A stretch of DNA of 64,000 nucleotides from Sarea resinae (Eukaryota), in NCBI GenBank assembly GCA_026026165.1, contig JAPEUD010000043.1, positions 1 to 64,000 on the forward strand. The letters run 5' to 3'. The notes under the pieces are model-generated. The model did not search any database. It saw only the letters and a program-made list of their open reading frames with translations, and was not told the DNA's origin. The stretch's first letter is position 1. Each line of letters begins with the position of its first letter. Positions 1 through 27,314 of this stretch are shown piece after piece. A program made the position numbers and the translations under genes.

Positions 1-126
1 CCCTAACCCTAACCCTAACCCTAACCCTAACCCTAACCCTAACCCTAACCCTAACCCTAACCCTAACCCTAACCCTAACCCTAACCCTAACCCTAACCCT
101 AACCCTAACCCTAACCCTAACCCTAA
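1..126 (+). repeat. Telomeric repeat array (CCCTAA)21
   Basis: 21 perfect CCCTAA units from base 1; canonical filamentous-ascomycete telomere (TTAGGG on the minus strand). Confidence 0.99.
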
Positions 127-2758
127 AATTTGTAAATCCTAGGAAGACTTAGAGGTTATAATAGGTCTTAGAGGCTAGCCACTCTTTTATAGTGTCTACC
201 TAGCTCTTCTCTATTGCGATACTATTAGTCCTAATAATAAATCCTAAGAAATTAACTTTCTACACTTTAAAGATATATTTTAAGGGCTTTATATATAGGC
301 TATAGGTTGATAGCTGTTTAAGGACCTAGTGTATATACTTCTTATACTTATTAGGTGAATTAGAGTATATAAGAATGTTATCTAGATAGATAACACAGCA
401 GATATTAACTAGGCCTTATAATATATAATTAATATAGCTCTAAAATGTAGCAAGTGTATTAGCTAATCTAAAGAGCATAACCTTATATTTAAACTAGTTG
501 TAATAAGTGCAGAACGCTGTCTTATACTTATCGCCTTTATAGATCCTTATATAGTAGTAGGTATCCTTTAGGTCTAGTTTTAAAAAAACTTTAGCACTGC
601 TTATTTAGTCTATAAGCTTAGAAATAAGAGGTAATAGGTATTAATTCTTAATAGTAACCTTATTTAACGCTTAGTAGTTAATATAAAGTTATAAGCTACT
701 ATTCTTTTTAGGCACAAATAAGATTAGCGCACTAATAGAGCTTATAAAGAGAGTGATCTACCTCTTTACTAAGCTGTTATCTAGGTAGGTCTGTAGAATA
801 CCTAATTCTTTCTAGGATAATAGATATATAAGACTATAGAGAGAGTCTTTACTCTCTAACTTAATAGTATAGTTAGCTAGACTATGCTTAGAAAGTTAGC
901 TAGCTTTCTCTTTACTAAAGATAGAAGCAAATTCTTTATACTATTTAGGTATCTTATTACTAGCGCTAACCTAGTAAAGCTTTACTACCTCTATAGGTTT
1001 AGGCACTACTATAATCTCTTAGTAGTTTAGCTAACGTTTTTTCTAATGTTCTTTACTAAGCCTAGGCTTATCTATAGGCTTAATATAGCTAAATTTACCT
1101 TCTAACTAATATATATTATAGTAGTATAAGAATAGCTATAGATACCTAAGTAAGAATAGAGGACTATTAAAGTTATAGGTAAAGAACTAGCACTACACTA
1201 TCTTCTTTATACTATTACTATTAGCAACTTGTATTTCTAATTAGTATTAGCTGTAAATCACTACTTATAAGCTATTTACTATTACTACACTAGGTAGCTG
1301 CCTAAGCTTAGCCTTAGAGATCCTATACTCTTTAATCTATAATTATAAAACTAGAGAAGCTTCTACTCTTAAATTAATTAAGGTAGTGCTATTTGCTGTA
1401 CTACTAGAGGTGTAAATAGTTAGCAATGTCTCTAATCTTAGAGTTAGAGCTCTTTAAGATTCTTCTACACTAAGATAGTAAATAGTGTAGGGTTCTAGCT
1501 CTAGTTATAAAGCTAGTGTAGGCCTATTATTGCGTTTATTCTTATAAGTAGAAGTAAAGTAGCTCTCTTAGCTATAGTTTAGACAAAGGTTACCTTCTTA
1601 CCTATAGTAATACTCTTTATTAAAGAGCTATTAAGGCTACTATATAGTCTTATTACCTTTATTATTTTTAGGCTAAGCAGAAGTTTTTTATTCTTATAGA
1701 GGTAGGCTTTTACCCTTATATTTAGTAGGATTAAACTTTTATTTAGTTCCTTATTTATTCTAGCTCTTTTCTTTCTCTACACTATTACTATGCTATTGCT
1801 TATTATCTAGCTTAGATAGATTAGGGTTCTTATTCTTATTCTTTTTATTGCTTATATAAAGGAGTTTCTCTACCTAATTTGCTAACACTATAGCAGCGCT
1901 CTACTTTTATAGTATAGGTAGAGTTTAAAGCAGTTCCTAGTAAATTTCACTTTAGATCTTAGTATAGAATAAGTTGTATTGCTGCTTTTTAAGAATGTCT
2001 TATCTTTCTAGCACTTCTAGTTTAATCTGTTCTAAGAAAGCTGTAAAGCTATTAATACTCTAGTGCAGCGCCTGTGTAGCGTTATAGTATAGCTATAATA
2101 TTAAACTACTTTAATTTACTAGATCTTCTACTTAGTCTAGTAAGAATAAGATAAATTTATCCTAGGTATAGATATCTTTCTTAGTAGATTCTTTAACCTA
2201 GTGCTATACTAGCGCTAGTTTGTCTTTTAAGTACTATATAGTATATAGCACCTTTGCTATATTATTACTTTTATCTATAATAGTACTTAGTTAGAACGCT
2301 ATCTTATAGGATTAGATAAATTTATTATACTCTTTAATTATCTTACTTATAAATAGCTTTAGAGCTTAGATTTTAGTCTAGTTAGTAATATAAGGTGCTA
2401 GTATAGCAGCTATAAGGCTTTATCCTAGCTATAATACTTATATAAGTGCTTATAGTTATTATTCTATATAGAACTAAGCTATCTCTCTTTAAAGTTAATA
2501 ATATTAAGCTTACTACTCTTTAGCGTTATACTCTTACTATATTTAGTCTAGTAATTAATTAGTAATCTAGTTAGAGATAGGCTTTTTAACTTTACTTTCT
2601 ACTTAGCTTACTACTATCTTACTATTATCTCTATTAGCTTCTTTACTTAGTAGAGTATTAAGAGCCTTTATAGTATTATATATATTTATTATTACTATCT
2701 TACTTAGTCTACTACTATATTAGTAGAGCGTTTAGAATTATTAGACTACTTTCTAAAC
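127..2758 (-). mobile_element. Ty3/Gypsy LTR retrotransposon relic, gag-pol body, truncated by the telomere at the end of RT
   Basis: Minus-strand translation gives gag LYYNATQALH*SINSFTAFLEQ (~2090-2025); zinc knuckle CLNYS*ESYFTSTY = CLNCGQEGHFASTC (1585-1544); protease TLINLRVEASLV = ALIDSGAEASLV (~1385-1350), in frame with the knuckle; RT KGDKYKTAFCTYYN*FKYKVMLFRLANTLATF*SYIN and VIYLDNILIYS (YLDD motif), then L*VFLGFTNF ending at the telomere. Confidence 0.93.
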
Positions 2759-3299
2759 TAGGCTATCTACTTAGGTTTAGGTACTTAGCCTAAATTAAGG
2801 TTTAGGCGGGTTAGCCTGCCTGATTACATAATCAGGTTAGGTTTAGGCAGGCTTAATTAGCTGTAGGGCCTACAGCCTACCTATTAGGTATATACAGGTT
2901 GATTAATAAGATAAAGAGTAGATTAATAAGATAAGATTATTAAAAGGTAATATATAGAGGTAATATCTAGAGAGTAAATGCGATAAAACTATAGGAATTG
3001 TAGAATAAGAATAATAGTATAATAATACACTCTATATGTTTAGTTTATAGTGCCCTACATAATCTACACTATATAAAAACTACTAAATCATCCTCTAAAC
3101 CTTTATAATGTAGTATGTTTTACTAGAACTAATTCTACTCTAACAGAGATAAATATATGCTGTAGCATATACAAAGCAAACTACTACAAGTGTAACTATT
3201 CACGCAATTAAGAAGGAAATAGACTAGTTCTAGAAGAGAGCCTCTATGCCTTTAACCTAACAAATAAATTATCTACAGTTAAACGCAGGCGCTTTCTTT

Positions 3300-6023
3300 A
3301 AGACAATATAGATTAAGCGTTATTATACCTAGAGCGTTAAAGCAAAGACTGCTGCTATAAAGCAGGTTTATCTAGCTGCACTATAGGTAGAGGTAGAAGT
3401 AGTAAAGAGTGCTTATCACTAGAAAACCTATACAGGTCTGTGTTATCCTATATCGCAGGCCTACTATTAATTAAGGTTGGCTTATTATTATCACTAATAA
3501 CAAGTAAATAATCATTAAATTCAGCTGATAGCGTGTGTTAATAATTAGTGTCCTTAGAAATACTGTTAGATTTATCTTTACCTATATAGAAGCAGAGTTT
3601 ATCGCGATTAAAGTGCTTTACAACTATAGTGTTCTAAACTGTTTCTGCTAAAAAGCGACTTTAACAAAAGGTAATAAGGTCTTATACCTTATTAAAAGTC
3701 TGTTTAACACTAACAGCAGCTCTAGGTATAGTAAGAATGTCTTTTACTATTTGTTTAAGCAAGGGCTAGTAGTGTGATCGCTAGAACTAGTAGAATGTCA
3801 GCACCTACACATAGAAATGTTACCTAAAAGTGTTACCTGCAAAGGATCCTTATAATCTATAGCTGGCGAAGATAGATACTAACTAACTAGATCTGTAATA
3901 AAGCGATGTTGTTTCTAAAGCGTCTTAGCCTATGCAAGTGAATTAACATCTAATGCTGATATAGAGAGTGCAGCAACATCTAAGGAGGTAACTTTAGTTC
4001 TTACATAATGCAACTAATAATAGTCCTTAAATTCGCGCTAGTACTTTCGCAAATATTTATAGCCCTAGTTATTAGACTTCTTAGCTATTAGCAAAACATT
4101 CCTAGAGGATAAGGTAAAGGTAACAGATTTAGGTAACATACTTTATATAGATTAAGCCTTGTTAAGGGATTAAGGATGCATGCTAAATTAAACATTCTCC
4201 TCTGTACTCCTTTAGTATCTTAGTAGTACTTAGAGAGCTTAGTCTTTGCTGCTTCTATAGCAGAAGTAAGCTCTTGTTTCTAAGGTGTCTGCTTAAGCCG
4301 TATCTTGTTTAGATGCTTCTCTAAGTGCTTAAAAATCTGAGAGTATACAAACTAGGTCTTGTAGATAGTTACGCCTTTAGTCTAAGACACAGCTCTTGTC
4401 TAATCATTAAATAGCTTTAGTAAGACAATTAGATAGCGAATATAGTCCTAACTAGTAGGAGAGACACGAGTTCTGCGTATAGCAGGACTAGTTTCGCTAA
4501 TAAGAAACATCTAAAGGGCATCTCGCAGCTGCTAGGCCTGCTTCAGCATATTATATATTAAGTTCTATTGAGTTTTAACATCTTAGATTATATTAACTAG
4601 CGTTAGCTGCAGATTACAAAAGCGTGTAGTTTGCTGTAATAAAGCAGCAATATAGATAGCAAGTGCATAAATCTAGAAACTTTAGAGGTAGTAATAGACA
4701 AGGGTTGTTAGCACTTACCTTTTACAACGTGCTGCTAAAAGAGTCTTTAGAAGGAAGCTGCTAAAGCAGCTCTTAGTCTGTATCTAACTAGGTATCTTAT
4801 ATAGACTTGTTTAAAGCAGTAATTTTTAGGCACTTATTAAAAGCCACGACTGCAAGCTGAATGACATACATAAGGCAAGGCACACAAGCAACCTTATAAT
4901 CCTATACAATCTAATAGTGATTAGCAAGTAGACTTATTAGCTCTTAACGCATTGTGTTGTTATTACCTGCGTTATCTGTTGTCACAGCTAGTATACAATC
5001 CTACAATGTAATGTTACCTAAAAGCGTTACTATAAACATTAAAGACAAACCTAAATGTTAAAACACTAAAGTCGATTAAGTAGTAACGTAGCTATGTTAC
5101 AACTAGAGTGCTCTCTAGTTATCTTTTTAAACCCTAGGAGGACTTCCTAGTAATTCTAGTCTTTGTTAATAAAATACCCTATTATAGAAAGAAAGGATAT
5201 CTTATTTAGACTTTGCTATACATCTAGTGCGATAGAAATTTTGGTTTCTAGGCCTAGTCTCTATAGGATCCTTAGTAAGATCTCTGTATATCGATTATAA
5301 ATGTTATTATAAACCTATTATCGCCTTAGAATTCAAAGGCCTAGCTAGTAAAGAAGGAAGCATTGTTTAAACTAGTGGTTTTCTATAATCTGCTATAGAA
5401 GATTTGCTAATAGAATTATCTTAAGGAGAAGGCGTTACTAGCTTAACTAAGAGAATAGCTCTAAGGTTTAGAGAGTCTTTAGTGCTAAAGCATGTTGCTA
5501 GCATTAAGGATAGAGGTATTAGTTAAGAGATCTATTACATATAGCGATATCTTACTATAGTCTAAAGAGCCTTAAGTGTGTGTATTGTGCCTGCTATAAG
5601 AGACTAAGCACACTCTAGAGAGCTATAGTGCTGTTTTATTGCAGAAGTGCCTGTCCTCTTAAGACTAGAATGCTCTTACTAACGTCTGTATTATTAACAC
5701 ATTACCTCTAGGCAGCTAGTTGCAACATTAGCAACCTAGTAGAAGAGAGACTAGGTTGTGCTTTTCCGCGTCCTAGAATCCTATTAAGGGCTTCTATATT
5801 AACCTATATCTGTATAAGCAGTCTGCTACCACTAGAAGATAAAAGTATTATGATATAATTGCTGCTAAATAACTATTCGCTGTGTAGGATCTCTTTGTAA
5901 CACCTCTAGAACATAGTGAATCAAAGCTAAAGTAATAGTTATAGGTTTAGACTTAATAGCTGTAGACCTTTATGTACTATCCCTAAGTTCCTTATAGTCT
6001 AATGTTTCAAACGAATTAGACAT
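3300..6023 (-). pseudogene. hAT transposase, RIP-inactivated, several introns; 3' end approximate
   Basis: ATG at 6023 (acaATGt). N-terminal SLFY*VANVATSCLEVMC; ANLL*QIIENH*F; ISIALDV*QSLNKISFLSIIGYFINKD (first catalytic Asp region, ~5240-5160); I*DVKTQ*NLIYNML = QDVKTRWNSTYDML (~4590-4545); dimerization domain KDILTIPRAAVSVKQTFNKV*DLITFC*SRFLAETV (~3750-3640). Confidence 0.92.
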
Positions 6024-6349
6024 TGTAAAGGAGAAATTTATAGCGATAAGAAAGTGCAGAAGGCCTTAGAACATATAGCAGAGTAAAGAGGTAGGAAGTG
6101 CCCTTAACTAGAGAAGTATTTGCTTAAATGTTGATATTAAAGGTTGCTAGGTTTAGCATAACTAAACAAACACAGCAAAGAGACTATAAAGAGAGTAATA
6201 CAATACAGCTATCTACTAGAGTTATTAGGAGAGAGTTTATACAGCTAAAATTTAATTAAGAGAATGTGCATTCCTAACGTGATTAATATACACAATGTTA
6301 CTAGTAAGTGTTACCTTTTTAGTAAACTAAATTCTAGAGAAAAAGTGAA

Positions 6350-8300
6350 AATCCACCCCTAGGCAGACATAGACTAATAAAGAAAAGCCACTTAGCTATA
6401 ACTGCCTCTCTACTTATCGCTATCCCTAGCAGCACTAGAACTAGAGTCCTTCTCTTTAGCATTATTAGTAGAGTTATCCTCACTCTCCTCTATATTAATA
6501 GGAACATTCTTAGCTGTTGTTAGTAGAGCCTCCTCTATAGCAGATCTAGCAATAGCAGGGTCCTCTCCTTTAGGAATATCCTCTAGCTAAGTTTTCTCTC
6601 CTATAGTTAGCAGCACAAAGTCTTCCTTATCACTTAAGATTAGGTTAATATCCTTATCAGATAATAGAAACACTTCTGCTTCTAAATTGCTAAACCTAGT
6701 AAAATTAGTCCTAGCCTCTGTATCACTATTAGAGAGGGTTGCACAGTCTTTAACCTGCTCTACAAACTCTAACATTACCTCCTTTAGATTAAGATCACTA
6801 GCTTCTACTAGATTATTATAGCTATAGCGGTAGATATCTCTCTTATAGCAGCAGACTACTTTTAGCAAGCGACTTCTAATGCGTTTGCCCTATGCTCTAA
6901 ATAACAAGTCAGGCTTATCTAAATTTTGTCCTTGCTAAACTAATTAGATAAATGCTGCAAAGAAACGTTACCTAAAAGTGTTACCTTAGGATCGGCACCA
7001 CTATTAGGTTAGCTATCTCTATTGTCTTTAAGTAGCAAGATATTAACAACATCCTTAACTATCTACTTGTTATCCTTAGCCTTTGCTTTCTCTGCCTTAA
7101 TAGCCTTTTACTGCTGTATAGTAACCTACTTAGCAGACTAGTAGAGGAAAAAGCGTCGTTCTATTAATTTGTCTATTTTAGGGTCTATAACAGTCTCTTT
7201 AAAGTCTTATCGTTGTGCTGTTATTATACTAGCGTAATTATTCTCGCGACAGAGTTTGCCTCTTAAGGTGGATTTTGCTTTCCTATCTACTCTATCTGCT
7301 TTTTTTAGTGTCTTCTTAAACTTAGTATCGCTGAGTTTACTATCTAGCTCTAACTCTAATGCTTTAGACTTTGCTTCCTTAAGCTACGCTCTAGCAATCT
7401 GTTGTTGTTTGCTGTAGAGAACTATCCTAAGCCTTATCTTACTAGTATAATGTCTTTGTAGGCAGGCTTTTACACGTTCTACTAGGCTAGCTATCTCTAG
7501 GTCAAATGTTCTCTTAGGATAAGAGGAAGTTGTAGGGGTTGCACTATAAGTTGCACTAATATTAGTCACTAGCAAACAATATTACCTAAATGTGTTACCT
7601 TAGACATCTCTTCCTAAGAGTAGAAGAGTCTAAGCTCTCTAGCTTATTATTAAGGTTAATCTCCTTCTGCTTCTGTCCTTTAGATATAGTCCTATTACTT
7701 TATTAGCTTTGTGTTTAGAAGTGTTACTAGGATATGTTACTACTTCTACTTCTTATAAGCCTTTCCTACTTTGTCTAAAAACTTTGCTTTTCTAACCTTG
7801 TCTAAGAAATTTGCTTTTGTCTTCTTAACAACAAAGACTATCTTAACTTTATTGCTGCTGTTATCACTAGAGTAGCACTATCAGCAGATATCTACAGAAT
7901 GTGTTACCTAAATGCGTTACCTAGCCTTACTATCTGTCTTCTTATTACTACTTCTTTTCTAACTGCTGCTACTATACAGAGAATTGTTTATAACTCTATC
8001 CTTAAGATCTATAGGCAGTTAGTTATTGTCTTTATATTCTTCTATATCTAGACTTAGCGCAGTTGTGCTAGATTTAGCTTTCTTAAGCTTTTGCTGTTTC
8101 CTAAACTAATGTAAGCCTTTTGTAGTACTATTATTACCTTAATGTGTTACCCTTAGCTCTAAGCTGCTAGTAGGCTATGATTTCTAGGAAGAAGTAAGTT
8201 TCACCTTACTTTTATCTCACTTAGAAGTCTAGAACTCACCTCTTCTTTATAATAACAGTTTTCTCTATAGCTGCCTTATTTTAAGAGAAGCTTGTAGGAG
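6350..8300 (-). pseudogene. Unidentified multi-exon cargo gene relic inside the hAT element
   Basis: Coding-like minus-strand frames broken by TAA/TAG, e.g. KETVIDPKIDKLIERRFFLY and RIRSRLLKVVCCYKRDIYRY, including ORFs 6587-6868 and 7384-7575. Intron-like segments end in ttgcag/gctag/ctgtag. No family recognised; boundaries approximate. Confidence 0.5.
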
Positions 8301-8391
8301 ATGTAAGTGATTTAGAGAGTAATTAGCTAGCTATCTTATCACTTTCTACTGCCTAAACAGTTAGAGAGTTAATAGGATTAATGAAATTAAT

Positions 8392-8848
8392 GAAATCTTA
8401 ATAATGTTAATAACAGAAGTAATAAAATTAGAGAGAAAGAGCAACCCTCCTACTATAAGAGAAGGTTGCTAATAATGTAGGTAGTAAGGTTAAATTACGT
8501 GGTGGATTTAGGCACGCAAGATTTAGGCAGAAGGTACGTACCTTATTAAACAGTTAATAACATTCACTGCAAGGTACATACCTTATTAAACAGTTAATAA
8601 CATTCACTGCAAGGTACATACCTTATTAACTAGCTAATAACACTAACTAAGGTATATACCTTGCAGTAAATATTTACCTTAATATTATATAGGTCTACTA
8701 CTTAATTTAACCTTACTACCTATATTATTAGCAACCTTCTCCTATAGCAAGAGGATTGCTCTCTCTTATTAACTTTGTCACTTCTATTATTAAACTAATA
8801 AGACTTAATAAACTTTATCACTTCTGTTATTAGTATTATTAAGATTTC
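8392..8848. repeat. Inverted repeat (arms ~8392-8509 and ~8691-8848) enclosing a 40-bp tandem repeat (8531-~8670)
   Basis: gagcaaccctcctactataagagaaggttgctaataatgtaggtagtaaggttaaatt is mirrored at 8691-8766, and 8392-8430 is mirrored at 8808-8848. The centre has two near-identical copies of aaggtacRtaccttattaaacagttaataacattcactgc plus a degenerate third. Confidence 0.9.
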
Positions 8849-9128
8849 TCTCTTAGTGCTCTTTAAGTTTTAAGGTTAAGGTGAGTTTTAGAACTACTAC
8901 TTAATAGTAACACATTTAGGTAACATTTAAGACTGCAAAGGCACTCAGCTAATTATTCCTAACTACAGACAACTCTCTAGATTCTTTCTTTAATACTAAC
9001 TAAAGATTCTCCTTTAGCACTCTCTACACTACACTCTTACTCTCTTAACATAATTATAGTCACTAATACAGTAAGTTATTCTTTCCTACCTCTACTAGTA
9101 ACACTTAATAGTAACATTTTACTAGACA

Positions 9129-9861
9129 ATAGCTTGTACTAAGCGTACTACCTGCAAGACTGTCCCTAGTACTAGTAGGAAAGGAAAAGGAAAAGGTAAG
9201 GGAATATCTGCTGCTAAGGCTTATTGTGTTACTAGTAGCAAATCCCTACGCAAGAACTTAGCTAGTATAGCAGCATGCAAAGGTTGTCTTGCTACTAGAC
9301 AACGCTTCACTACTAGCACATATGCTAAACGCTAAAAGGCCTACAAAGATGCTATAAAAGCATAGGTTTATAAGGATACTGCCTTTTATAGTTGTAGTAA
9401 GGTTTATAGTGTGCCTAAACTAATCTAACTCTGTTGCACTTGTCTAGGCAGTAAGTCTTAGTCTCTAAACTCTAAGGGTAACACATTATAGTAACATTTA
9501 AACACTATAGCATCTGCACTCTATAAAATCAAGAGATTGCAAAAATCTATTAATTTAGTCATTCTAAAGCTCTCTTTCTAGCGCCTAGTCTGCAAGGTTA
9601 TATCTTATCACTGCTACCTCCTTAGAGAGCTCTGTTTTTAGTTATTAGCTATATATGCCTTGCAAGAAGCCACTAAGGCTTTTATAGTTAGGTTCTTTAA
9701 AAGTGAGTTTTTCTATCTCTTCTTCTATTCTATACTTAATTTTTCTAGATGTGCTTTAGGCCTGCATTTATTAGAACTGTGTGACTATTAATTACAAAGA
9801 CACTTAGTTTATTAAGGCTTTAATAAAGGGCTTTAGTATCTAGATCTCTAGTGACACATAG
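9129..9861 (+). pseudogene. Histone H3-like variant gene, RIP-inactivated, carried by the hAT element
   Basis: Exon 1 (9129-9450) IACTKRTTCK...TSSKSLRKNLASIAACKGCLATR...CCTCLG = MARTKRTARK...TGGKSPRKNLASxAARKGRPATG...RRTRPG. Intron 9451-9510. Exon 2 TSALYKIKRLQKSINLVILKLSF*RLVCKV...LCF*LLAIYALQEATKAFIVRFFK matches H3 [28 protein letters not shown]...LRFQSSAVMALQEA. Intron 9703-9748. Exon 3 ACIY*NCVTINYKDT*F matches AIHAKRVTIMPKDIQL. 3' end approximate. Confidence 0.9.
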
Positions 9862-9909
9862 GTTAAGTTTCTATAGCATTAGCTCTAAGGTTTTACTAGT
9901 CCTAGTAGC

Positions 9910-9957
9910 GCAATTAGGGATGCAATTAGGGATGCAGTTAGGGATACAATTAGGGCT
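9910..9957 (+). repeat. 12-bp minisatellite (GCAATTAGGGAT) x4
   Basis: Units gcaattagggat, gcaattagggat, gcagttagggat, acaattagggct downstream of the H3-like gene. Confidence 0.85.
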
Positions 9958-10307
9958 TCTCTAGTCTTCTAGTCACAGGTCATAGGAAGTTATAAGAGGC
10001 TTATAGTTTTTCTCTGCCTTTTAGCATTTTTAGTCTTTACTTTACTTAGTCTACAATAAAGACTTAATAGACTTAGTAACATATATAGGTAATATTTGTA
10101 GAGTAATAGCGGCTTTTTAATGCTCTGTAAAACATGCCCTACAATCTATGCTATTTTAGCTACTATCTTTATGTCATGTGATAGGTACCTACACCTACCT
10201 ACTAGGTCTTATCAGGTAGGTTGATTAGGGCATAGGTACTTAATACCTATACCTAGGCAGGTTCTTCTACCTCTACCTACCTAGTAGGTACCTAAGTAGA
10301 CACTCTA

Positions 10308-10960
10308 TTCTAAACTTCTAGCTATAGTAGAGTAGGTAAGAATAGTATAATTAAATAGGCTAGTGTATTATAGCATGCTATTATTACTCTAGCAATATAG
10401 AACTAATACTATAGATATAGATATTACTAGTAGGCACTAACTTTATAATTGCACTAAATACTAGCTCTAATAGCTAGCGCCTCTATTAATCTATATAACT
10501 AATAACCTTACTTAGCTTACCTAAACATTACTAAACTACACTAGGTAGTTACTTTATACTACACTAAGCTATATATAGCATAACTATTAGTAGTAGCTCT
10601 TATAATAAAATAAGAAATATAAGCGATTAGAGAGAAAATAAAACAAGAAATATAAGTAAAAAACTTATAGAATTAGCTTCTTTACACTTATACTAGTGTA
10701 TCTTATTACTTATAACAAATAATTATATAATAATGTAATAGATCTTTAGAGTTATTAAATTATAATAGAACTTATTATAAAATTATCTCTATATAATATG
10801 TGGTTATAGAGTTATTATAGTTAGAAAACCCTAACTAACTATAAAAACTTCTAATTCTAACCTATATCCTATGTATATTATTGTCTTAGGCAGGCTATTA
10901 AATAGATAAGGTATTAAAACAAGGAGATAGTTATATTAGATAGTTAAACTTATAGTAACA
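10308..10960 (-). mobile_element. Probable 5' part of the Gypsy element (gag start, leader, possible LTR ~10734-10960)
   Basis: Continues the host sequence beyond the right TSD and is as heavily mutated as 127-2758. A TG...CA bounded segment (TGTAATA at 10734, GTAACA ending 10960) lies near the RIP boundary. No partner LTR is available to confirm it. Confidence 0.5.
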
Positions 10961-11379
10961 CAGATAAAGCAATTGTATCTGATAACTCTATAGATAATTA
11001 GAATGCATGATTGAAAAATCCGTACTCTTTATAGAATCTAACCTATTTATAGGGTTCTTTAGGCCTATATATCGCCGGCTATCTCGTCAAAAATGGGTTG
11101 CTAGTGCAGAGCATCATTCTCGTGGTCGTTATCATCATTGTATCAGCTGTATCGTCAAAAATAATATCCTTTGCCCATGCGACGACGCTCATAATATTCG
11201 CTTTTATCATATGGCTCAATGCAACTCCTCCCCTCTTCCACTCTGAGCCGAATCGAGCATTTCCTCCCTCTCCGGCCATACCATCTCTCCTATCCGTTCA
11301 TGATTCATCATTCGGATATGCAGAGTTCGATGAGAGTCACCGAGTGACTTAACGACCGCGCTTTAAATCCGCCGAACCC

Positions 11380-13160
11380 TCACAACGAATCAGCCGACCA
11401 CTTACCCTTGGCTCGAATCCGTCTTCCGTAGATATAAAAGAGGAACGGAATCGGGATCATTGCCGCAGCGAAAAAGCCCAGAACGCTCGAGGCCCATCCG
11501 ATGCCCATATGATGAAACATGGGAGTAGCGAAGAGAGGGAAGACGCCACCCAAGATGCTCCTTAAGAAGGTATTGGCAGCGATGGCACTTGCTGCGTATC
11601 TCAGGAAGACGTCGACGAGGTAGTTGAGCGCAGCTTGGAAGATTGTCGTGAAGCCTAAGCCCATACAAGCCGCTCCAATGCAGCTTGCTATCCATGGGAT
11701 ATCTTTGTCCGAGGTCCAGCCGAAGATAAATAGGCCACCACTGAAAAATACGGAGCCGATCATCATTGGTGGTAAGCGTGCTTCAGGGACAGGACGGCCG
11801 TTGTTCGCTTTCAATCGGCTAATGTAGAAGCCTTGGTTCAAGATGTTGACCACCGCGCCGAAGAGGATGCCACTGCCGAGAAAATGGTCAGATTGATGGA
11901 TTCGGGCGAATTTGGGGGGGGGGGGCTTACATTAATAGAGCCAGAAATGGAAGAGAGCCAACAAGCGGATTCCAGCCACGATGTTCCTGAAATACTATAG
12001 GAAATGAGGCCAGGTTCAGGTAAACGATACCATAAACGAATGAGGCATACAGGGCGACTAGGAAACAGATAGGAGTCAAGAGCATCTGAAACGGCCTGAC
12101 CAGGTATTTGGTTGCGAGCTCTCTGAGACTGACATCCCATTCTTCGTGTCTGGCATGGAGAGCCCAGTTGCCGGATTCATGGCGGAGTCGACGAGCTTTG
12201 TAGACCAGGAGTACTGGTGGATAGCTCTCATCCAGAATCAGGACGTCGAGAATCAATATGAAGAACATCCAGATTGCCGTCAGCTAAGCAAATAAGCAAA
12301 TGCACCAAGGATGACAGCCTTCACGTACGTATTCGGTCCACCTCCACCGCAGATAGCTTTGCACTACGGCGCCTCCAATGATGGGCCCCAGACACGGTCC
12401 AACGACGACGGCTAATGCGTAAAAGACAATGGCAACGCCACGTTGCTCTGGCGCCCAGATGTCACCCATCACACCACCTGTATTGGTGACCGGCGCAGAG
12501 GCGAATAGGCCCGCAAAAAAGCGAGTCAACAACACCGTCTGAATATCCTTGGCCGTCGCGGTGCCGATGGAGAAGACGGCGCCGATAAAGTATGGCGTCA
12601 AGACGGCCGGTTTCCGCCCATAGACCTCAGAAAGTGGCGCCCAGAGGAGCGTGCCAAGTCCGAATCCAAAGAGGAGGAACGTCAGACCCAATGTGGAAAC
12701 CTCCTGCCCAACATGGAAATGATCAGATATTTGCGGAATGCCTGGCGAGTAGCTACTCTCGGTCAGCGGGGATGAATTGTCATTGAGATGGGTCATACAT
12801 TGCACTGGCCAATGTCGCCCCCATGGTGGTCATCCCATACAACGCCGTCGTAATGCACTTCTTCCCAAGGGACCAATTTAGCGGATGATAAAGATCATCC
12901 TTGCCGTCAAAGTCAACAATGGCATCTCCACCGGTCTTGCTGCGCGTCAACGGGTGTGTGAACCGGCGCGGCACATCAGGCCTGCTTCTCAAGCGAGAGA
13001 GCACAGATGATGTCGTCCGTTTATTGATGGCCCTGCCCGTACTGCTGGCGGTATCGGATTTTTCGAGGTCGTGGTCTTTGCTGTTGTCGGTTTCGCTGCT
13101 TGGATCAAGGGCCGGTGGCGACCTAATCTTGCCCTCGGTTTGTGCTGAAGATTCGGCCAT
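11380..13160 (-). CDS. MFS DHA1-family multidrug/polyamine transporter (spliced)
   Basis: Starts MAESSAQ. Motifs VDFDGKDDLYHPLNWSLGKK, WAPLSEVYGRKP, LTRFFAGLFASAP, DESYPPVLL, PEARLPPM and YAASAIAANTFLRS; about three GT-AG introns. Confidence 0.93.
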
Positions 13161-13803
13161 TGTGCACAAATGATTGCGCACTTCGATGCAATTTAACAGC
13201 TTGTCAACAAATTGAATCCATTGTATGAGCACCAAATCTCATCTATCGGAGATGACAGCGGCATTTTATAGATTGTGAGTGAGGTCATTGATTATCGGAC
13301 ATAAGTCATCGGCGACCGAGTAGGCCTCGGCCGACGCGAGCAGGACCCTTGTACGAAGTACGTACATAGTACGTCCCGGTCTGACATCGCTTATCAGATC
13401 GCCGTGTTCAGGGTCTCTTTCTCTTCGATGCAGTAAGATATGAGCTCGATATACCCAATGATTCTACAGCAAACCGAATTGCCAATACGTGTTTGGTTTC
13501 CTCGGGGGACGGTAAAAGACTACGCTATGCATACATGTATATTATGAAATAGGGAATGAGTCAGAAGACAGCAGTAGCCATGATTGCTTCTCCACAGCAC
13601 CTCACCCCTCTCCTTTCTCATTCCTCGTAGCCCCCTGAGAAGATCGATCGATCGGTTAATCATTCAAGCAAGCAAACAGACCACTTTTCAAACATCGTAC
13701 TTCAAGTTCACCTGTATTACCCTCATCGTTTGGGGCGTTCCCAGCCTAGCCCAGCCCAGCCCCGACCCGTCCCTTTACCATCAATCTTTCAACGGGTACC
13801 AAA

Positions 13804-16800
13804 TCACACACTCTGTCCTCTTTTCTCCCTCTCATCCTTGCCCCGCCTCGTCTCCCGCTCCACCAATTTGACAGCATCCGTCATGGCATCACCGCCGACC
13901 CTCCAGCTCCTCAATAAGATGCCCTTGCGATCCAATATTTGCTTCGCACGTACCCATCTCCTCTTCCAGAGCTCCTCTTTCTTGTTGATTGGCTGCTGCT
14001 GCTGCTGTTGTTGCGGATAATTCGCCGACCGGCTGTCAGATTCGTAGTTGCTTCCGTTCCACGTGTTGCTGATGGTGCTAGAAGCGTATTGGGCTGCTTC
14101 GGCCGGATAGGAAGTAAGGGGCTTTCTTGGAGGTGGCGGAGGAGGTTTAGAAGAGCCATCGTCGGACACGGCAGAAAGGGAATCGCGCGAGGAACGCCGC
14201 GAGGATAGACGGGAAGTTCGGCGCGAGGCGTCCTGATCCTGAGATTGGGTCCCATACCAGTACGACGACGCGGATGGCATACTATTATAGGCCGAGGCTA
14301 CTTTCTGGCGCACACTGGACCTGTAGCCCTGCCGCTCGGCACTATTCTCATTGCCTAGTTGCGAAAAATCTCCTGATTGTGCCGAGGACACTTGAGTTTC
14401 ATCTTCGCCGATTTCCAAAGGACGAGAGCTATTTCGAGGCTTTGGTGGGGGCGGTGGAACCTTTTTGGCTGGTGGTTTCAAATCATCCGCGGATGACGAA
14501 CTGCCAGGACTTCTCAATGCCAGTGGCTTTGCTGGCGGCGGTGGCGGGCGAGATTTTCCTTTGGCAGCCAATGATCCCGCGGCATCTTGCCTGTGGCGTG
14601 ATTCAAATCCGATGTCCGTCATGGACCGCGAGTCCAGTGGTACCCTTCTTGGCGGAGAGGGAAAAGACGGATCATCCTCGTCGAGATCTATAAGCTTTCC
14701 CATCGCCGGCTGTGTTTCCGTAGACGTTGTTGCAGCGGACTTCATAGACGGTCGCGGAGGTAAGACAGGTTTTCGTTGGGGTGATCGCCGAAGGGGCTCA
14801 ACTCGCTGTGGCGGTTCTACCCCGACCACCGAAGAGCTCCTCCCATCCCGAAGCCCGCTGGAAAGATCGACATTGCTGAGTGAAGCAGGCGAAGAATCGA
14901 AGAATCCCTTGGATGGTGGCGTCGTCACATCCCTGATAAAGATACCAATGATTCTTCCAGGATGTGCAAGAGCAGTGTCGGTATATACCTCAAGGTCCGC
15001 TTCTCCGCTATCGCCCACGAGGATAAACTTCCTTTGGGGAAAATCTGCGAGTAACTTTTCCAGCGTGCCCTTCTTCCTTTCAGCTACAGGCTCAAATATG
15101 CCCTGTAACATTCCGCTATATTGTTTCAGATGGTACGACCCTGAAGGCAAGCCGGCCATGGCAAAGAAAGTGCTAATGACGGGATAGAGCTGCCATGGAG
15201 CATTGGAGACATAATGCATTTGAACACCCATACTAGAAAGTGTTTGATACCACTCTTTAACTCCGTCAACGGTCAAGTCCTTGAGATCTCGGACAAAGGT
15301 ATTGCGAAACATCTCTCGAGCGCCCCCACCAATCGCGGAATGCTTGATCGTATCATCGATGTCACTTATCAGACTAACGCCAGTCGGTTCGATGATTCTG
15401 ACCTCAGCGGTAGCTGATAGATTCTCCGACGCGAGAACTCTGACGCTCGTGGGCACAAAATCCAAAGCGGCTCGTATGTTGAAATGGCCGCTATCATTCG
15501 TCACGATCGTTCGGGATCTCGATGTCTCGTCATCAAAGAAGAAGACTGTAATCGGCGTGGCAGCTAGCGGCGTCGTCATGAAAGGCTTCAGTCTTGCCAT
15601 CAGATGGGCATTAGCAATGCCCAGCTCTGCGGGGTTCATTGTTGTTGACGGTCCCCACGAGGTTGCCTTGGATAGATATCCTGGTGCCGGTTCTTTCTCC
15701 GGGTTGGAATTCAAGGACGAGTCCGTCAGAGGGTGTATGATATGTCCAGGTTGAGGTGATTGTGAAGATTGCCTTCGTCTCGCTCCAAGATCCGAGTCTG
15801 ATGGGTCCTCACTGTACCCTCCACGGCCAGCAACATCAGCCTCTCCCTCGCCCCTTTTCATGATCTCTTCCGCTTCCTTTGAGACCAGATCCTCGTCTCG
15901 CCTGGCAGTCCTCGAGCGCTCCCTGGTCGGGCTCGTGGGCCGACTACTCGTAGGGCTAGCGGGGCCACTGGGAGGCCTCGATGAGGATGGCGCAGGAATT
16001 CCACTCAATTGCCTTGCCAGTCCAATCAACAGTCGGTTCCTCCGGGTCATCGGGCCCCGCTGCGGAGAATATATCCATCCACGAACATCCACATCGACAA
16101 TGGCACTATCATCCTCGTATTTTTCCCACTCTCTCCGCCAAAACTCCGCGTCGCCCGCACCAGAAGTATCTCTCGAGTCCCGTCCGGAACCAGCATCCTC
16201 CTGTATAGTTCCTGGCTCTGCTCTTGGTTTCTTCTTCACGTGTCTCCTGGCATAGCTAGGAAACAAGACCATTTCCTCATCGCCACTCCTGACAATATCC
16301 ACATCAGGGAAGGCACCCGGTATTCCAGCCCCATTCTCGTCGACCTCAGGATCTCTTTGGCCTCGCGGTGCCAGATATGACTGCTGATAAGACTGGCGTA
16401 GCTCGTTGGCCGCCTTCAAGTATCCAGCCAGTTTTCGTCGCCGGGCTCCTCGTTCTCTCTGCTCGGGCGGAGGACTGCCCCCCCTCTCCGACAAACCAGA
16501 CGCAGACATTCCAGACATTGGTAATTTCAATCTCTGCCGTCTCGAGACAACATGATGAGACTGTGACTGTGACTCGGCAACGACCTTTTGGCTTCTTCCC
16601 CTTAGTAGCGCAAGGATTCCGACCCCAGCAGCTCGTCTCTGTCGACGACGATGTTGTCCGTCGAGAAGATAACGATAGATGCGCGAATGCGCGCGTTGTC
16701 GATAGAAAGGCAAGGTCTCGTGTCTAAAGTCAAAAAGCCCGGAACGGGCACGTCGATGGGTCGCCGGGAACAGGTATCGCAGCAGCGAGGACTTATTATG

Positions 16801-16845
16801 AGAACGAACGAATGGCTTTCGAGGTAAGCCGCCGGGAGGAGCCAC
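13804..16845 (-). CDS. APP1: App1-type phosphatidate phosphatase (actin patch protein); starts at GTG 16845 or first ATG 16518
   Basis: Single long ORF with LISDIDDTIK (DxDxT), MHYVSNAPWQLYP, FILVGDSGEADLEVY and a proline-rich C-terminus. Confidence 0.9.
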   Translation of the reverse strand: MAPPGGLPRKPFVRSHNKSSLLRYLFPATHRRARSGLFDFRHETLPFYRQRAHSRIYRYLLDGQHRRRQRRAAGVGILALLRGRSQKVVAESQSQSHHVVSRRQRLKLPMSGMSASGLSERGGSPPPEQRERGARRRKLAGYLKAANELRQSYQQSYLAPRGQRDPEVDENGAGIPGAFPDVDIVRSGDEEMVLFPSYARRHVKKKPRAEPGTIQEDAGSGRDSRDTSGAGDAEFWRREWEKYEDDSAIVDVDVRGWIYSPQRGPMTRRNRLLIGLARQLSGIPAPSSSRPPSGPASPTSSRPTSPTRERSRTARRDEDLVSKEAEEIMKRGEGEADVAGRGGYSEDPSDSDLGARRRQSSQSPQPGHIIHPLTDSSLNSNPEKEPAPGYLSKATSWGPSTTMNPAELGIANAHLMARLKPFMTTPLAATPITVFFFDDETSRSRTIVTNDSGHFNIRAALDFVPTSVRVLASENLSATAEVRIIEPTGVSLISDIDDTIKHSAIGGGAREMFRNTFVRDLKDLTVDGVKEWYQTLSSMGVQMHYVSNAPWQLYPVISTFFAMAGLPSGSYHLKQYSGMLQGIFEPVAERKKGTLEKLLADFPQRKFILVGDSGEADLEVYTDTALAHPGRIIGIFIRDVTTPPSKGFFDSSPASLSNVDLSSGLRDGRSSSVVGVEPPQRVEPLRRSPQRKPVLPPRPSMKSAATTSTETQPAMGKLIDLDEDDPSFPSPPRRVPLDSRSMTDIGFESRHRQDAAGSLAAKGKSRPPPPPAKPLALRSPGSSSSADDLKPPAKKVPPPPPKPRNSSRPLEIGEDETQVSSAQSGDFSQLGNENSAERQGYRSSVRQKVASAYNSMPSASSYWYGTQSQDQDASRRTSRLSSRRSSRDSLSAVSDDGSSKPPPPPPRKPLTSYPAEAAQYASSTISNTWNGSNYESDSRSANYPQQQQQQQPINKKEELWKRRWVRAKQILDRKGILLRSWRVGGDAMTDAVKLVERETRRGKDEREKRGQSV

Positions 16846-24925: not shown

Positions 24926-27314
24926 TTAGTCCGACTCGGCATAGCTGATCTTTTTCGCTCGCGAACTTTTCCTTGCCCCGCCGCGTGCTACACTTACAGG
25001 GACAGCCAATTCCACATCGGAAATCGGTGCTGGAGCCTCCGAATCTTCTTCGTCCGACGTGGATGGGGTTGGCACACTCTTCAATACCCGTTTCTTGCGC
25101 GCAGCTTTCTTGACAGTCGCTTTGGCTTTCTTGATCGGAGGTGTGGTCTCCTTCACGGCCTGTCCCACTCCGGGTGGGGACTTGGCGGCAATCTTACGCT
25201 TTTTGACAGGCGTCGTCTTTAGGGTTTCCTTGCCATCATCGCCAGTCTTCTTTTTCACTACCCTCTTCACCGGTCTCAGCCATTCCTCCATTCCCGGAGG
25301 CCAGTAGACTCGACCTTCGGGACCGCCCATTCCCACATCCTCTTCTGGAACAACACTGGGTCCAGCCTGTGCGAGCTCTTCTTCTATGTGCTCGGCTGCT
25401 TCGACTTCGACTTCCTCTGCATTTACCTTCTTGGACCTCTTCTTCGGCGTGGTCTTCTTGGGCACTTTGACCGGTTTGTTGTCGTCATTCCGTACGTGTG
25501 GTATGATATCGCTGAACGAGTTCCATCCGGGTAATCTAAAAGTCCTCATGAGCTCAAAGACTGCCTGCTCTTTATCTTTTGCTTCTATCATGAGATCCAT
25601 AGTGGGATCACAGGGCGGCAAGGTTGCCACTCGTGGATTGTGCTTCCTTCGCTGACGACCAGTAATAGCACTCGGAGTCGGTTCTGAATAGTGCATTTTT
25701 TGTGTGATTCGCTTTCTGGTCCACGTTTCTGATATCTCGTCGTACAACGGAATGAGATCCATCGTGCCCTCGCGCACCTTCTCCGCATCAAAGATGATAT
25801 TGTGGTGATGGTAGTCCAAGACCATGGGAATATTAAGTTCCTTGCAGATTGGGAGGAGGTCATGGACCGACCAGCTCACGTCGTCATTCTCCAACACTAG
25901 CCGATTTTTGATATTCTGGCTGAGGCCCTTGTAGTTCTCACGAAAGCGGTTCAAGGTTGCTTCCTTGTCCCCAAAGACCCCTCCCATGTGTAGGATCATG
26001 ACAGCATCTCGGTCTTGTTGCGGTGGAAGCTTCAGCAGACTCAGCATTTCGGCATGGTATTCTAGGTCCCTGATGGCATTCCTGATGACTTCTTTTCGGG
26101 GAGAACCGAGTTGAGTAAACTAGACGAACAATTAGGTTCGCTTCTCATATCTCCGTCATGAGCATCCATACCTGACCCGGATGAGTCGAGACTCTGTGGC
26201 CAAGCTCGGCAACAACCTTCCCGGTTTCTTTCAATACTTCCGCCGCGAATGGTTCTAGTTTGTAGCCATACTCCTCGTGACTGGCAAACGGAAACATCTC
26301 ACTGCTAAGTCGTAGAAACTTGATCCCGTATCGATCATTCCATTTCAGCATTTTGATGATGTCCCTCGCATTGGCCAGCCCAATGTTTTCAACATAGGCT
26401 TGACCTCTTGAAATGCTTGCCGGCTGCTCCTTGTCCGGCCTATTCTTGATCGCATGTTCGGGTTGGTTTGGGTCCTTGAGGGGATGGCGATGTTCGAGAA
26501 TAGATGCGATCCGACATGTTCGAGAGCTGAAGACGGGAGGATTCGAGTACCGAAGATATGTGCAGAGGCATGCCTTTGCAAATCAGTAGATGAGCTCAAG
26601 GTACTAAAAGTTGCCACTTACGTATCCCAATCGACCATTCCAAGGTAGTGGGAGAAAATCGCTATGAACGGGAGGAGGTCTGGTCAGGGCCTCCCTAACT
26701 TCCTCCTCGTCGACATCATCTAGGCCCTCGGCTTCCGGATCAACTATTTCCGTATCTATATCATCCGACTTTGATTTTGTCGGAGACGTTGACGACCTGT
26801 TAGAAGCTCGCGGTTTTCCCTTTGCGGCCTTCTTGCCCTTCAATGGCTTGTTTTCCTTTTCAATTTCGGATAAATCTGACAGTGAAGAATCCGAGCTCAA
26901 GTCTGGCATTCGGAAATCGCTAGAAGGCATGATGTTGTCCTGGGTAGTCGCGTCGATGGCGCCAGCTGCCGCCAACGTCTGTGGATCCAAAAGGGCGCCA
27001 CTTTGGCCGTGGAGTGTGGAATCGAAATCCGGTTCGGTGGCATTATGGTCAGTCGTCAATCGCGTTGGCGCGCGCTTGATTGTTCTCTTCGCCTTGAGAC
27101 CAGGTATCTCAAGCTGCAACGGTATAGCAGGTAAATCATTCCGCGATGTTGTGGTCGCAGTTGCTGCTGAAGAACGCTTCCTCTTCACCATGATTTCCCA
27201 TGCAGAATGTCCAGGGCGAGAGAACGAAGCCAAAAGGATTGGTCGCAATGGCGGTGGCGAAAGACTAGTCCGGAATGCAGGAACAGCGCCACGCGCCCGG
27301 AGACGGGCAAGCAT
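24926..27314 (-). CDS. uve1: UV-damage endonuclease (UVDE), spliced; alternative downstream ATG at 27191
   Basis: LPLPWNGRLGY, FLRLSSEMFPFASH, HRVSTHPGQ, MILHMGG, RLVLENDD, VLDYHHH, QKMHYSE and DLMIEAKDKEQA. Confidence 0.93.

Follow-up and report, generated by a model that had tools for sequence, protein, structure and literature searches.

Histone-bearing hAT transposons in fungi

Transposons of the hAT superfamily that carry genes for histone H3-like proteins have been described in several fungi. A further one is found in a 64,000-nt stretch of the ascomycete Sarea resinae (GenBank assembly GCA_026026165.1, contig JAPEUD010000043.1, positions 1 to 64,000, plus strand; hereafter, the window), where it occupies positions 2759 to 10307 (7,549 bp). 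It is probably a dead copy, riddled with repeat-induced point mutation (RIP), of a multicopy autonomous hAT transposon that ancestrally encoded a transposase, a central protein, and a divergent H3-like protein (H3L). The element is a new example of a described class; it represents no new phenomenon and opens no new question.

In Pyrenophora tritici-repentis, a hAT element combines a transposase gene, a central open reading frame (ORF), and an H3L gene (Manning 2013, G3, PMC3538342). The available part of that report describes an element of ~5.6 kb with a 2.3-kb recombinant form, present in 10 long and 16 short copies that are nearly identical, free of RIP, and expressed, as judged from expressed sequence tags. 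Judging from the in-frame chimeric short form, this ORF is probably located upstream of the transposase gene, in the same orientation. The Pyrenophora H3L (PTRG_00559 is given in a figure legend) has insertions in its N-terminal tail and fits neither H3 nor the centromeric variant CenH3; a possible effect of such histones on chromatin had been proposed as early as 2013. As far as that text goes, the S. resinae element has the same layout, with three genes between terminal inverted repeats (TIRs), and is likewise multicopy, the two being compared by layout, not by sequence. The likeness extends to H3L, which here has a tail longer by ~65 residues and a fold that is 42 to 43% identical to H3, CenH3-like, and H3-like proteins alike. 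In contrast to the Pyrenophora copies so described, the S. resinae element is 7.5 kb long, heavily RIP-mutated, and dead. A sequence-only reading of this DNA, made before the present analysis, had pointed to the Pyrenophora case; the precedent is real and closer than was claimed, as it includes the transposase and the central ORF along with H3L.

Elements of the hAT-H3 type are also found in six Mycosphaerellaceae, e.g., in Pseudocercospora, Cercospora, and Sphaerulina (Dhillon 2019, Mobile DNA, PMC6710886). According to the available portion of that paper, they are ~9.5 kb long, carry one or two intronless H3 copies that are read as a captured transcript, and contain no other recognized gene. 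[quoted passage not shown] In contrast, the latter is 7.5 kb long and has a single H3L gene with two introns in the coding region, which sets it apart from an intronless retrocopy. The Mycosphaerellaceae consensus termini (TAGACCCC... and TAGAGGTTAG...) share, as compared by eye for Czm, Peu, and Pfi, just the first 3 to 5 bases with those of the S. resinae element, which therefore belongs to a different family at the DNA level. The heptamer GGTAACA is absent from the 45-kb file of these consensus sequences, in which line breaks may hide a few copies.

Two other kinds of cargo-bearing transposons are less similar. Plant Pack-MULEs, as cited in the accessible text of both papers (PMC3538342, PMC6710886), are mostly non-autonomous and carry gene fragments. 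Like them, the S. resinae element has a host-type coding sequence between TIRs that was amplified with it; unlike them, it is of the autonomous type, and its extra gene is complete and spliced. Fungal DNA transposons that encode TET/JBP dioxygenases (PMC12730594) also bring a chromatin-related gene of their own, but, going by the available part of that report, their transposase superfamily and cargo differ, and no homology is claimed. A full-text literature search, whose coverage excludes subscription journals, returned no further description of such elements.

Boundaries and mobility of the element

The ends of the element are marked by the following features (window coordinates).

2751-2758, no strand: left copy of the TSD, TTCTAAAC, an exact 8-mer found at both sides
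2759-2776, plus strand: left TIR, TAGGCTATCTACTTAGGT, compared with the reverse complement of the right end
10290-10307, minus strand: right TIR, whose reverse complement, TAGAGTGTCTACTTAGGT, pairs with the left TIR
10308-10315, no strand: right copy of the TSD, TTCTAAAC, the same exact 8-mer

The 18-bp TIRs (TAGGCTATCTACTTAGGT versus TAGAGTGTCTACTTAGGT) are identical at 15 of 18 positions and differ by 2 transitions and 1 transversion. They begin with TAG, a YAG-type end as found in hAT elements, and the TSD has the 8-bp length of the hAT superfamily. The consensus for hAT ends is YARNG.

Copies of this locus were read from the Logan contigs of X1 (share of words, 0.79), the only public DNA run listed as containing this sequence; no RNA run was listed. 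One X1 contig joins position 2752 directly to position 10310, skipping 7,557 bases, i.e., the 7,549 bp of the element plus 8. Two further X1 contigs join 2744 to 10314 with 12 letters in between; they have 14 bases over the site, with 5 differences from the window, all of them transitions, and on reading contain the 8-mer once. These contigs represent paralogs of the flanking retroelement that lack the insertion. Because such uninterrupted paralogous sites exist, the segment from 2759 to 10307 must have moved as one piece and made the 8-bp duplication; the empty site fixes both ends of the element to the base. The mobile unit that had been proposed from the sequence, in which TIRs and an exact 8-bp TSD enclose a transposase gene, an unknown gene, and a spliced H3-like gene, is confirmed.

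Gene content

Three former genes are found between the TIRs.

3592-6023, minus strand: hAT transposase gene, several exons, inactivated by RIP (match to P0001, tblastn, PF05699)
6410-8190, minus strand: central gene, several exons (stop density by frame)
9129-9861, plus strand: H3L gene, exons 9129-9450, 9511-9702, and 9749-9861

For protein searches, the stop-ridden transposase gene was read with X at stops. It has a candidate ATG at 6023-6021, a conserved C-terminal dimerization region at 3798-3592, and an approximate 3' end. Its region matches P0001, a hAT-type protein of 875 residues from Penicillium angulare, with E=6.5e-20 and 25% identity, the single match among 8,000 scored candidates. 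A tblastn search with P0001 gives four collinear pieces (5245-5090, 5057-4800, 4672-4223, and 3765-3676), the last of which corresponds to the dimerization domain. P0001 itself carries the Dimer_Tnp_hAT domain (Pfam ID PF05699; E=4.7e-14), whereas the C terminus of the element's own transposase matches PF05699 weakly (E=0.0097; 16.1 bits, under the cutoff of 21.4). The weak direct match and the route through P0001 together point to a hAT dimerization domain. The four tested transposase exons contain 27 stops in 392 codons, all of them TAA or TAG.

The central gene is best preserved in two exons, 7566-6982 and 6952-6413, followed by a stop codon at 6412-6410; its 5' end is approximate. In one frame, stops are few in these exons (7 per 194 codons and 4 per 179 codons), versus 19 to 38 in the other frames, and because of this low stop density the gene is read as a real former coding sequence. 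Its product has no Pfam match, and a PDB sequence search with its exons returned nothing below E=0.4. A word-indexed homologue search with exon D gave 781 candidates, none of which scored. In the ESM Atlas, a 99-residue stop-free piece reached a best score of 0.84, which is at chance level, and an AlphaFold2 model of exon D made without an alignment is unusable (mean predicted local distance difference test score, 36.9). A six-frame Pfam scan of the whole element in 2,500-residue reads yielded just one match, to the Histone family and below threshold (E=0.0015).

The H3-like gene

The H3L gene consists of 208 codons in three exons, separated by introns of 60 nt (9451-9510) and 46 nt (9703-9748). 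Its 9 internal stops are exclusively TAA or TAG, and no frameshift is needed in the exon model. The first codon is ATA, compatible with an ATG altered by RIP. From its N terminus, the encoded protein consists of an H3-type start, a tail that exceeds the H3 tail by ~65 residues, a histone fold, and an H3-type C terminus. The point at which the alignment with H3 resumes, ...G|T-x-A-L..., coincides exactly with the first coding intron.

Exon 2 matches the Pfam Histone family with E=1.3e-5 (25.9 bits; cutoff, 26.4) and 159 PDB sequences of H3 and CenH3 at E<=0.001. Among PDB sequences, yeast Cse4 matches best (E=3.4e-7); it aligns without gaps over 59 residues because loop 1 of H3L has three residues more than that of H3. 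Canonical H3 chains come next, at ~1e-6 to 8e-6, and the advantage of Cse4 is small. In the fold, H3L is identical to canonical H3 at 32 of 77 positions, to the CenH3-like protein P0020 at 39 of 90, and to the Talaromyces H3-like protein P0015 at 38 of 89 (42 to 43%). If RIP is reversed in full, allowing every T before A to be C and every A after T to be G, identity rises to maxima of 44/77, 49/90, and 49/89, respectively, i.e., at most 57% to H3. Canonical H3 is near-invariant, and H3L falls far from that at either count. At least ~43% of the fold of H3L therefore differed from H3 before RIP, which indicates that the divergence predates RIP. The sequence-only reading had called the histone strongly diverged with its fold kept, and the identity values and the three-exon model agree with it. 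These comparisons indicate that H3L is a variant that diverged long ago and did not arise recently from a host H3 gene.

A phmmer search of 1.84 billion representatives with H3L gave 21 matches at E<=0.001, the top ones being tandem-fused canonical H3 gene models of animals and plants; among them there is no H3L-specific relative and no Pyrenophora protein. In 20 of the 21 matches the best stretch lies within query residues 110 to 190, so that no relative was found for the tail. A word-indexed homologue search with H3L gave 41 candidates, none of which scored. P0015 (EED23423.1, Talaromyces stipitatus, 187 amino acids) bears the annotation of a putative centromeric histone H3, and an ARTK stretch is present in its tail. 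At the same place, P0015 reads KSIELVIPKL and H3L reads KSINLVILKL, and P0015 may be another transposon-type H3L. A metagenome scan with P0015 as the query gave 180 pattern matches, none of which was confirmed.

Several traits of H3L are reminiscent of CenH3 (Cse4, CENP-A), namely, the three extra residues in loop 1, the long N-terminal tail that cannot be aligned, and an EAT.AF motif shared with P0020. The CenH3 gene is essential and single copy, and its product lacks the α1 glutamine of H3. H3L, by contrast, is a multicopy, stop-ridden transposon cargo with an H3-type N-terminal start; the α1 position of the H3 glutamine reads TAG in H3L, which fits CAG (Gln), and identity to CenH3-like proteins is no higher than that to H3 (43% versus 42%). 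The longer loop 1 and the Cse4 match (E=3.4e-7) could be taken to mean that a host gene for an H3 or CenH3 variant, lying between unrelated repeats, was struck by leaking RIP. This is extremely improbable: the lead of Cse4 over H3 is small (3.4e-7 versus ~1e-6), an essential single-copy centromeric histone could not carry 9 stops, and the whole 7.5-kb unit is repeated and precisely absent from paralogous sites.

A multicopy family inactivated by RIP

X1 contig pieces with at least 80% likeness were placed on positions 1500 to 12000 of the window, divided into 30 bins. There are 3,877 such pieces, of which 1,452 are at least 99% alike, 1,201 are 95 to 99% alike, 939 are 90 to 95% alike, and 285 are less than 90% alike; thus, 2,425 fall below 99%, in agreement with the earlier suggestion that the unit was multicopy. 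Summed contig depth is 6,177 to 16,144 in the bins of the element versus 332 to 378 in three unique bins at 10977-12000; as the tool itself warns, this depth is not a copy number, and the claim is restricted to many diverged copies. The look-alike contigs cover all 30 bins. Of the 14 listed joints, some are the empty-site skips and one passes over 86 bp in the right flank; the others are internal and skip 41 to 478 bases (e.g., 3755-4234, 4298-4545, 5981-6114, 7518-7607, 7793-7866, and 8928-9091). None of these 14 joints in X1 contigs removes the H3 segment, and none corresponds to a short recombinant form like that of Pyrenophora.

Transversions account for 63 of the 788 places of change listed among the copies, and transitions for the remaining 725 (180 A>G, 184 G>A, 190 C>T, and 171 T>C). 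The TpA/ApT ratio is 1.87 in the element versus 0.63 in the host part of the window, and the (CpA+TpG)/(ApC+GpT) ratio is 0.71 versus 1.27. The well-supported exons of all three genes contain 47 in-frame stops in 972 codons (13 TAA, 34 TAG, and no TGA), and the absence of TGA is weakly in line with RIP. These stops and the dinucleotide bias bear out the view that RIP had hidden the reading frames from the ORF list. RIP caused the inactivation; the present copy is dead, and nothing in it is functional.

Some contigs of the family differ in length from the window. A 27-nt insertion (9 codons, in frame) is found at 6559, in the last exon of the central gene, in two look-alike contigs. Another look-alike contig lacks 162 bases at 8928-9091, between two copies of a 19-nt motif in the H3L leader, which fits recombination between the motif copies.

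Noncoding features and a 19-nt motif

Outside the coding exons, the element contains several repeats and a recurrent motif.

2774-2850, plus strand: left subterminal repeats, three copies of GGTTTAGG (at 2774, 2799, and 2840; word count)
2947-10093, both strands: 19-nt motif with the consensus GTAACAC-W-TTTAGGTAACA (pattern GTAAY-N8-GTAAY)
8392-8848 (457 bp), no strand: palindromic spacer between the divergent central gene and H3L gene (repeat analysis)
8881-9125, plus strand: presumed 5' untranslated region (UTR) of H3L with two motif-bearing introns (8881 to ~8931 or 8940, and 9071-9125)
9910-9955, plus strand: 3.8 tandem copies of the 12-bp unit GCAATTAGGGAT, downstream of the H3L stop, with the telomere hexamer TTAGGG in each unit

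The pattern GTAAY-N8-GTAAY is found 14 times in the 64-kb window versus 0.24 times expected; none of 100 shuffles reaches 14, the largest count being 2. All 14 matches lie inside the element and none in the 56 kb outside it. On the plus strand, the motif starts at 2947, 4120, 8907, 9098, 9478, and 10076; on the minus strand, it is found at 3819-3836, 5013-5030, 6297-6314, 6967-6984, 7581-7598, 7723-7740, 7903-7920, and 8133-8150. Twelve of the 14 copies are in the sense orientation of the surrounding gene, 7 to 15 nt upstream of a YAG or AAG and at changes of the open frame. Most copies are found within the 3' portion of introns. Homology identifies two of the sites as intronic, namely, 5001-5050 in the transposase gene, where the flanking exons are read against P0001, and 9451-9510 in H3L. 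Three H3L introns carry the motif, and one more copy (10076) lies downstream. Introns 4694-4739 and 9703-9748 are without it, and the copy at 4120 is antisense within an intron.

Ordinary donors (GTAAGT, GTGAGT, or GTTTGT) precede the motif in the three H3L introns (51 to 60 nt) and in intron 5001-5050 (50 nt); at several other motif sites the donor cannot be placed, and the intron bounds are approximate. Mini-introns of 30 nt starting at GTAACA were considered and dropped, as the ordinary donors lie 20 to 27 nt upstream. A role as the mark of a genome-wide introner-like element is likewise unsupported, given the lack of copies in the 56 kb of the window outside the element. A metagenome scan with the motif gave 20 loci, in 17 of which the pattern GTAAY-N8-GTAAY matches once and in 3 twice; these loci have no tblastn match to P0001 through P0022, align by blastn just over the 21 to 25 nt of the motif, and are chance matches. 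A 13-bp tandem repeat, AGGTAATATATAG, is found in 2.5 copies at 2945-2977, 188 bp from the left end, and represents a degenerate, antisense-placed motif copy outside any gene.

The motif contains TTTAGGTA, which overlaps the end repeats, i.e., the three copies of GGTTTAGG in the left 150 bp and the TAGGTA repeats at the right end. GGTTTAGG is found 3 times in the first 150 bp and not at all in the 7,249-bp interior of the element; outside it, there is 1 copy in the 2,632-bp left RIP-mutated flank, none in the 643-bp right flank, and 1 in 53 kb of host DNA. These repeats are putative transposase-binding sites. An enrichment of TAGGTA or TTAGGT at the element ends was rejected, as both are equally common in the RIP-mutated flanks. 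The motif copies themselves are best regarded as putative internal protein-binding sites that would be tolerated only in noncoding parts.

In the presumed 5' leader of H3L, the introns have the donors GTGAGT and GTAAGT, their acceptors are TAG or AAG, as read from the sequence, and they appear to be UTR introns; the segment 9069-9119 is 75% identical over 51 nt to the segment 9449-9499 of the coding-region intron. Between the ~115- to 155-nt arms of the palindromic spacer lies a tandem repeat (8531-8662) with a 40-bp unit in 3.3 copies. Within the spacer, 100-nt arms are 84% complementary and 38-nt arms 89%, and the spacer may act as a bidirectional promoter.

The distribution of the motif bears on whether the H3-like block (~8850 to 10100) could be a separate later insertion into a two-gene hAT element or an assembly chimera. 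Depth is somewhat higher at 8520-9221 (14,058 and 16,144) than in the neighboring bins (6,177 to 9,545), and the large palindrome adjoins the block. However, the motif is common to the introns of the transposase gene, the central gene, and H3L, as well as to position 10076, and the right TIR, the partner of the left one, is located on the far side of the block. No TIR/TSD pair surrounds the block among the repeats listed, and no listed joint skips it, which makes a separate origin very improbable. None of the findings that the sequence-only reading had named as counting against it was seen, including family copies without the H3 segment (among the 14 joints and 30 covered bins) and an H3 block with its own TSD (among the listed repeats). 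Because three of its introns carry the motif of the element and no listed joint removes it, H3L is regarded as integrated in the element.

Resident gene or passive cargo

The evidence suggests that H3L was a long-standing resident gene with an intact spliced ORF until RIP. It might have been selected as an element-encoded chromatin factor with an anti-silencing or targeting role, a proposal that is unproven. Some indirect support for it comes from a divergence too great for RIP, from the completeness of the gene, and from the presence of the element's motif in the H3L introns. H3L would be transcribed divergently from the central gene across the palindromic spacer. In the active phase of the element, it would enter nucleosomes in place of H3, on or near the copies of the element, a step that is favored but likewise unproven, and such nucleosomes could alter the chromatin of those copies. 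The motif of the TTTAGGTAAC type, which shows overlap with short repeats close to both ends, might serve as an internal cis-site.

Alternatively, a host H3-type gene, canonical or variant, was transduplicated passively and drifted as neutral cargo until RIP. This is the published reading of both known cases, as far as the available texts of PMC3538342 and PMC6710886 go, and it is consistent with the N-terminal tail having no relatives in the 21 phmmer matches (20 of the best stretches lie at residues 110 to 190), with all look-alike sequences being affected by RIP, and with the unproven function and expression of H3L. However, at least 43% of the fold differs beyond the reach of RIP, yet there is no frameshift and the stops are only of the RIP type. 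H3L is also complete, with a start, three exons, and an H3-type C terminus, its introns bear the motif of the element, and the same three-gene layout is found in Pyrenophora, as described in the available text. Drift after the capture of an already divergent gene would be compatible with all of these points. Passive transduplication thus appears possible but somewhat unlikely.

Several observations weigh against the reading of H3L and the central gene as resident parts of an old autonomous element. Selection on H3L is hypothetical, and its divergence may be older than its capture, should the gene have come from an H3 variant or a CenH3. In their available parts, Manning 2013 and Dhillon 2019 regard such H3 copies as cargo acquired by passive transduplication. 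With H3L and with the central gene, word-based searches returned nothing, Pyrenophora proteins included. All look-alike contigs are affected by RIP, with no intact copy among them, and contig depth cannot show that H3L is present in every copy. The stop-type argument is weak, as TGA makes up 12 of 226 wrong-frame stops, so that only ~2.5 TGA would be expected among 47. Finally, run X1 may be the source sample of the window assembly, which is no drawback for a census of copies in a single genome.

The resident-gene reading can be extended to a single old ascomycete hAT lineage in which an H3 variant with CenH3-like traits and the central protein are integral and selected. They would build special nucleosomes on the element or its targets, so as to escape silencing or steer insertion into AT-rich, telomere- or centromere-like havens, with the intronic TTTAGGTAAC motif as a cis-site that marks the DNA or RNA of the element. 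This extension is quite doubtful.

Whichever reading applies, H3-like matches in AT-rich RIP blocks of ascomycetes are possibly transposon cargo and not necessarily pseudogenes of host histones. The present copy displays the complete unit at base resolution. The element is distinct from the Mycosphaerellaceae consensus elements and, together with the Pyrenophora layout, as known from the available text, this makes the repeated pairing of a hAT element with a divergent, complete H3 gene harder to call chance capture. Testable features are the three extra residues in loop 1 and the long tail of H3L, the putative divergent promoter region with its palindrome, and the motif in the introns.

Chromosomal setting

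The window starts at a telomere, with 21 perfect CCCTAA telomere repeats at positions 1 to 126, and the element is subtelomeric, 2.6 kb inside it. The GC content is 0.27 to 0.36 over positions 1 to 11000 and 0.45 to 0.58 over the remainder of the window. The insertion target (127-2750 and 10316 to ~10950) is a multicopy, RIP-mutated retroelement; its left part encodes a RIP-damaged reverse transcriptase on the minus strand (RVT_1; E=2.4e-15), and the flank bins have summed contig depths of 6,449 to 42,343. An Rfam search of positions 1 to 11000 gave a single chance-level miRNA match (27.4 bits versus a gathering score of 120).

Just inward of the AT-rich block, ordinary host genes are found at 13804-16845 and 24926-26047. 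The first listed of the pair encodes an APP1-type phosphatidate phosphatase (E=5.4e-50), and the second contains an exon of a UvdE UV-endonuclease gene (E=1.3e-51). The closest Atlas clusters of the phosphatase are from Ascomycota.

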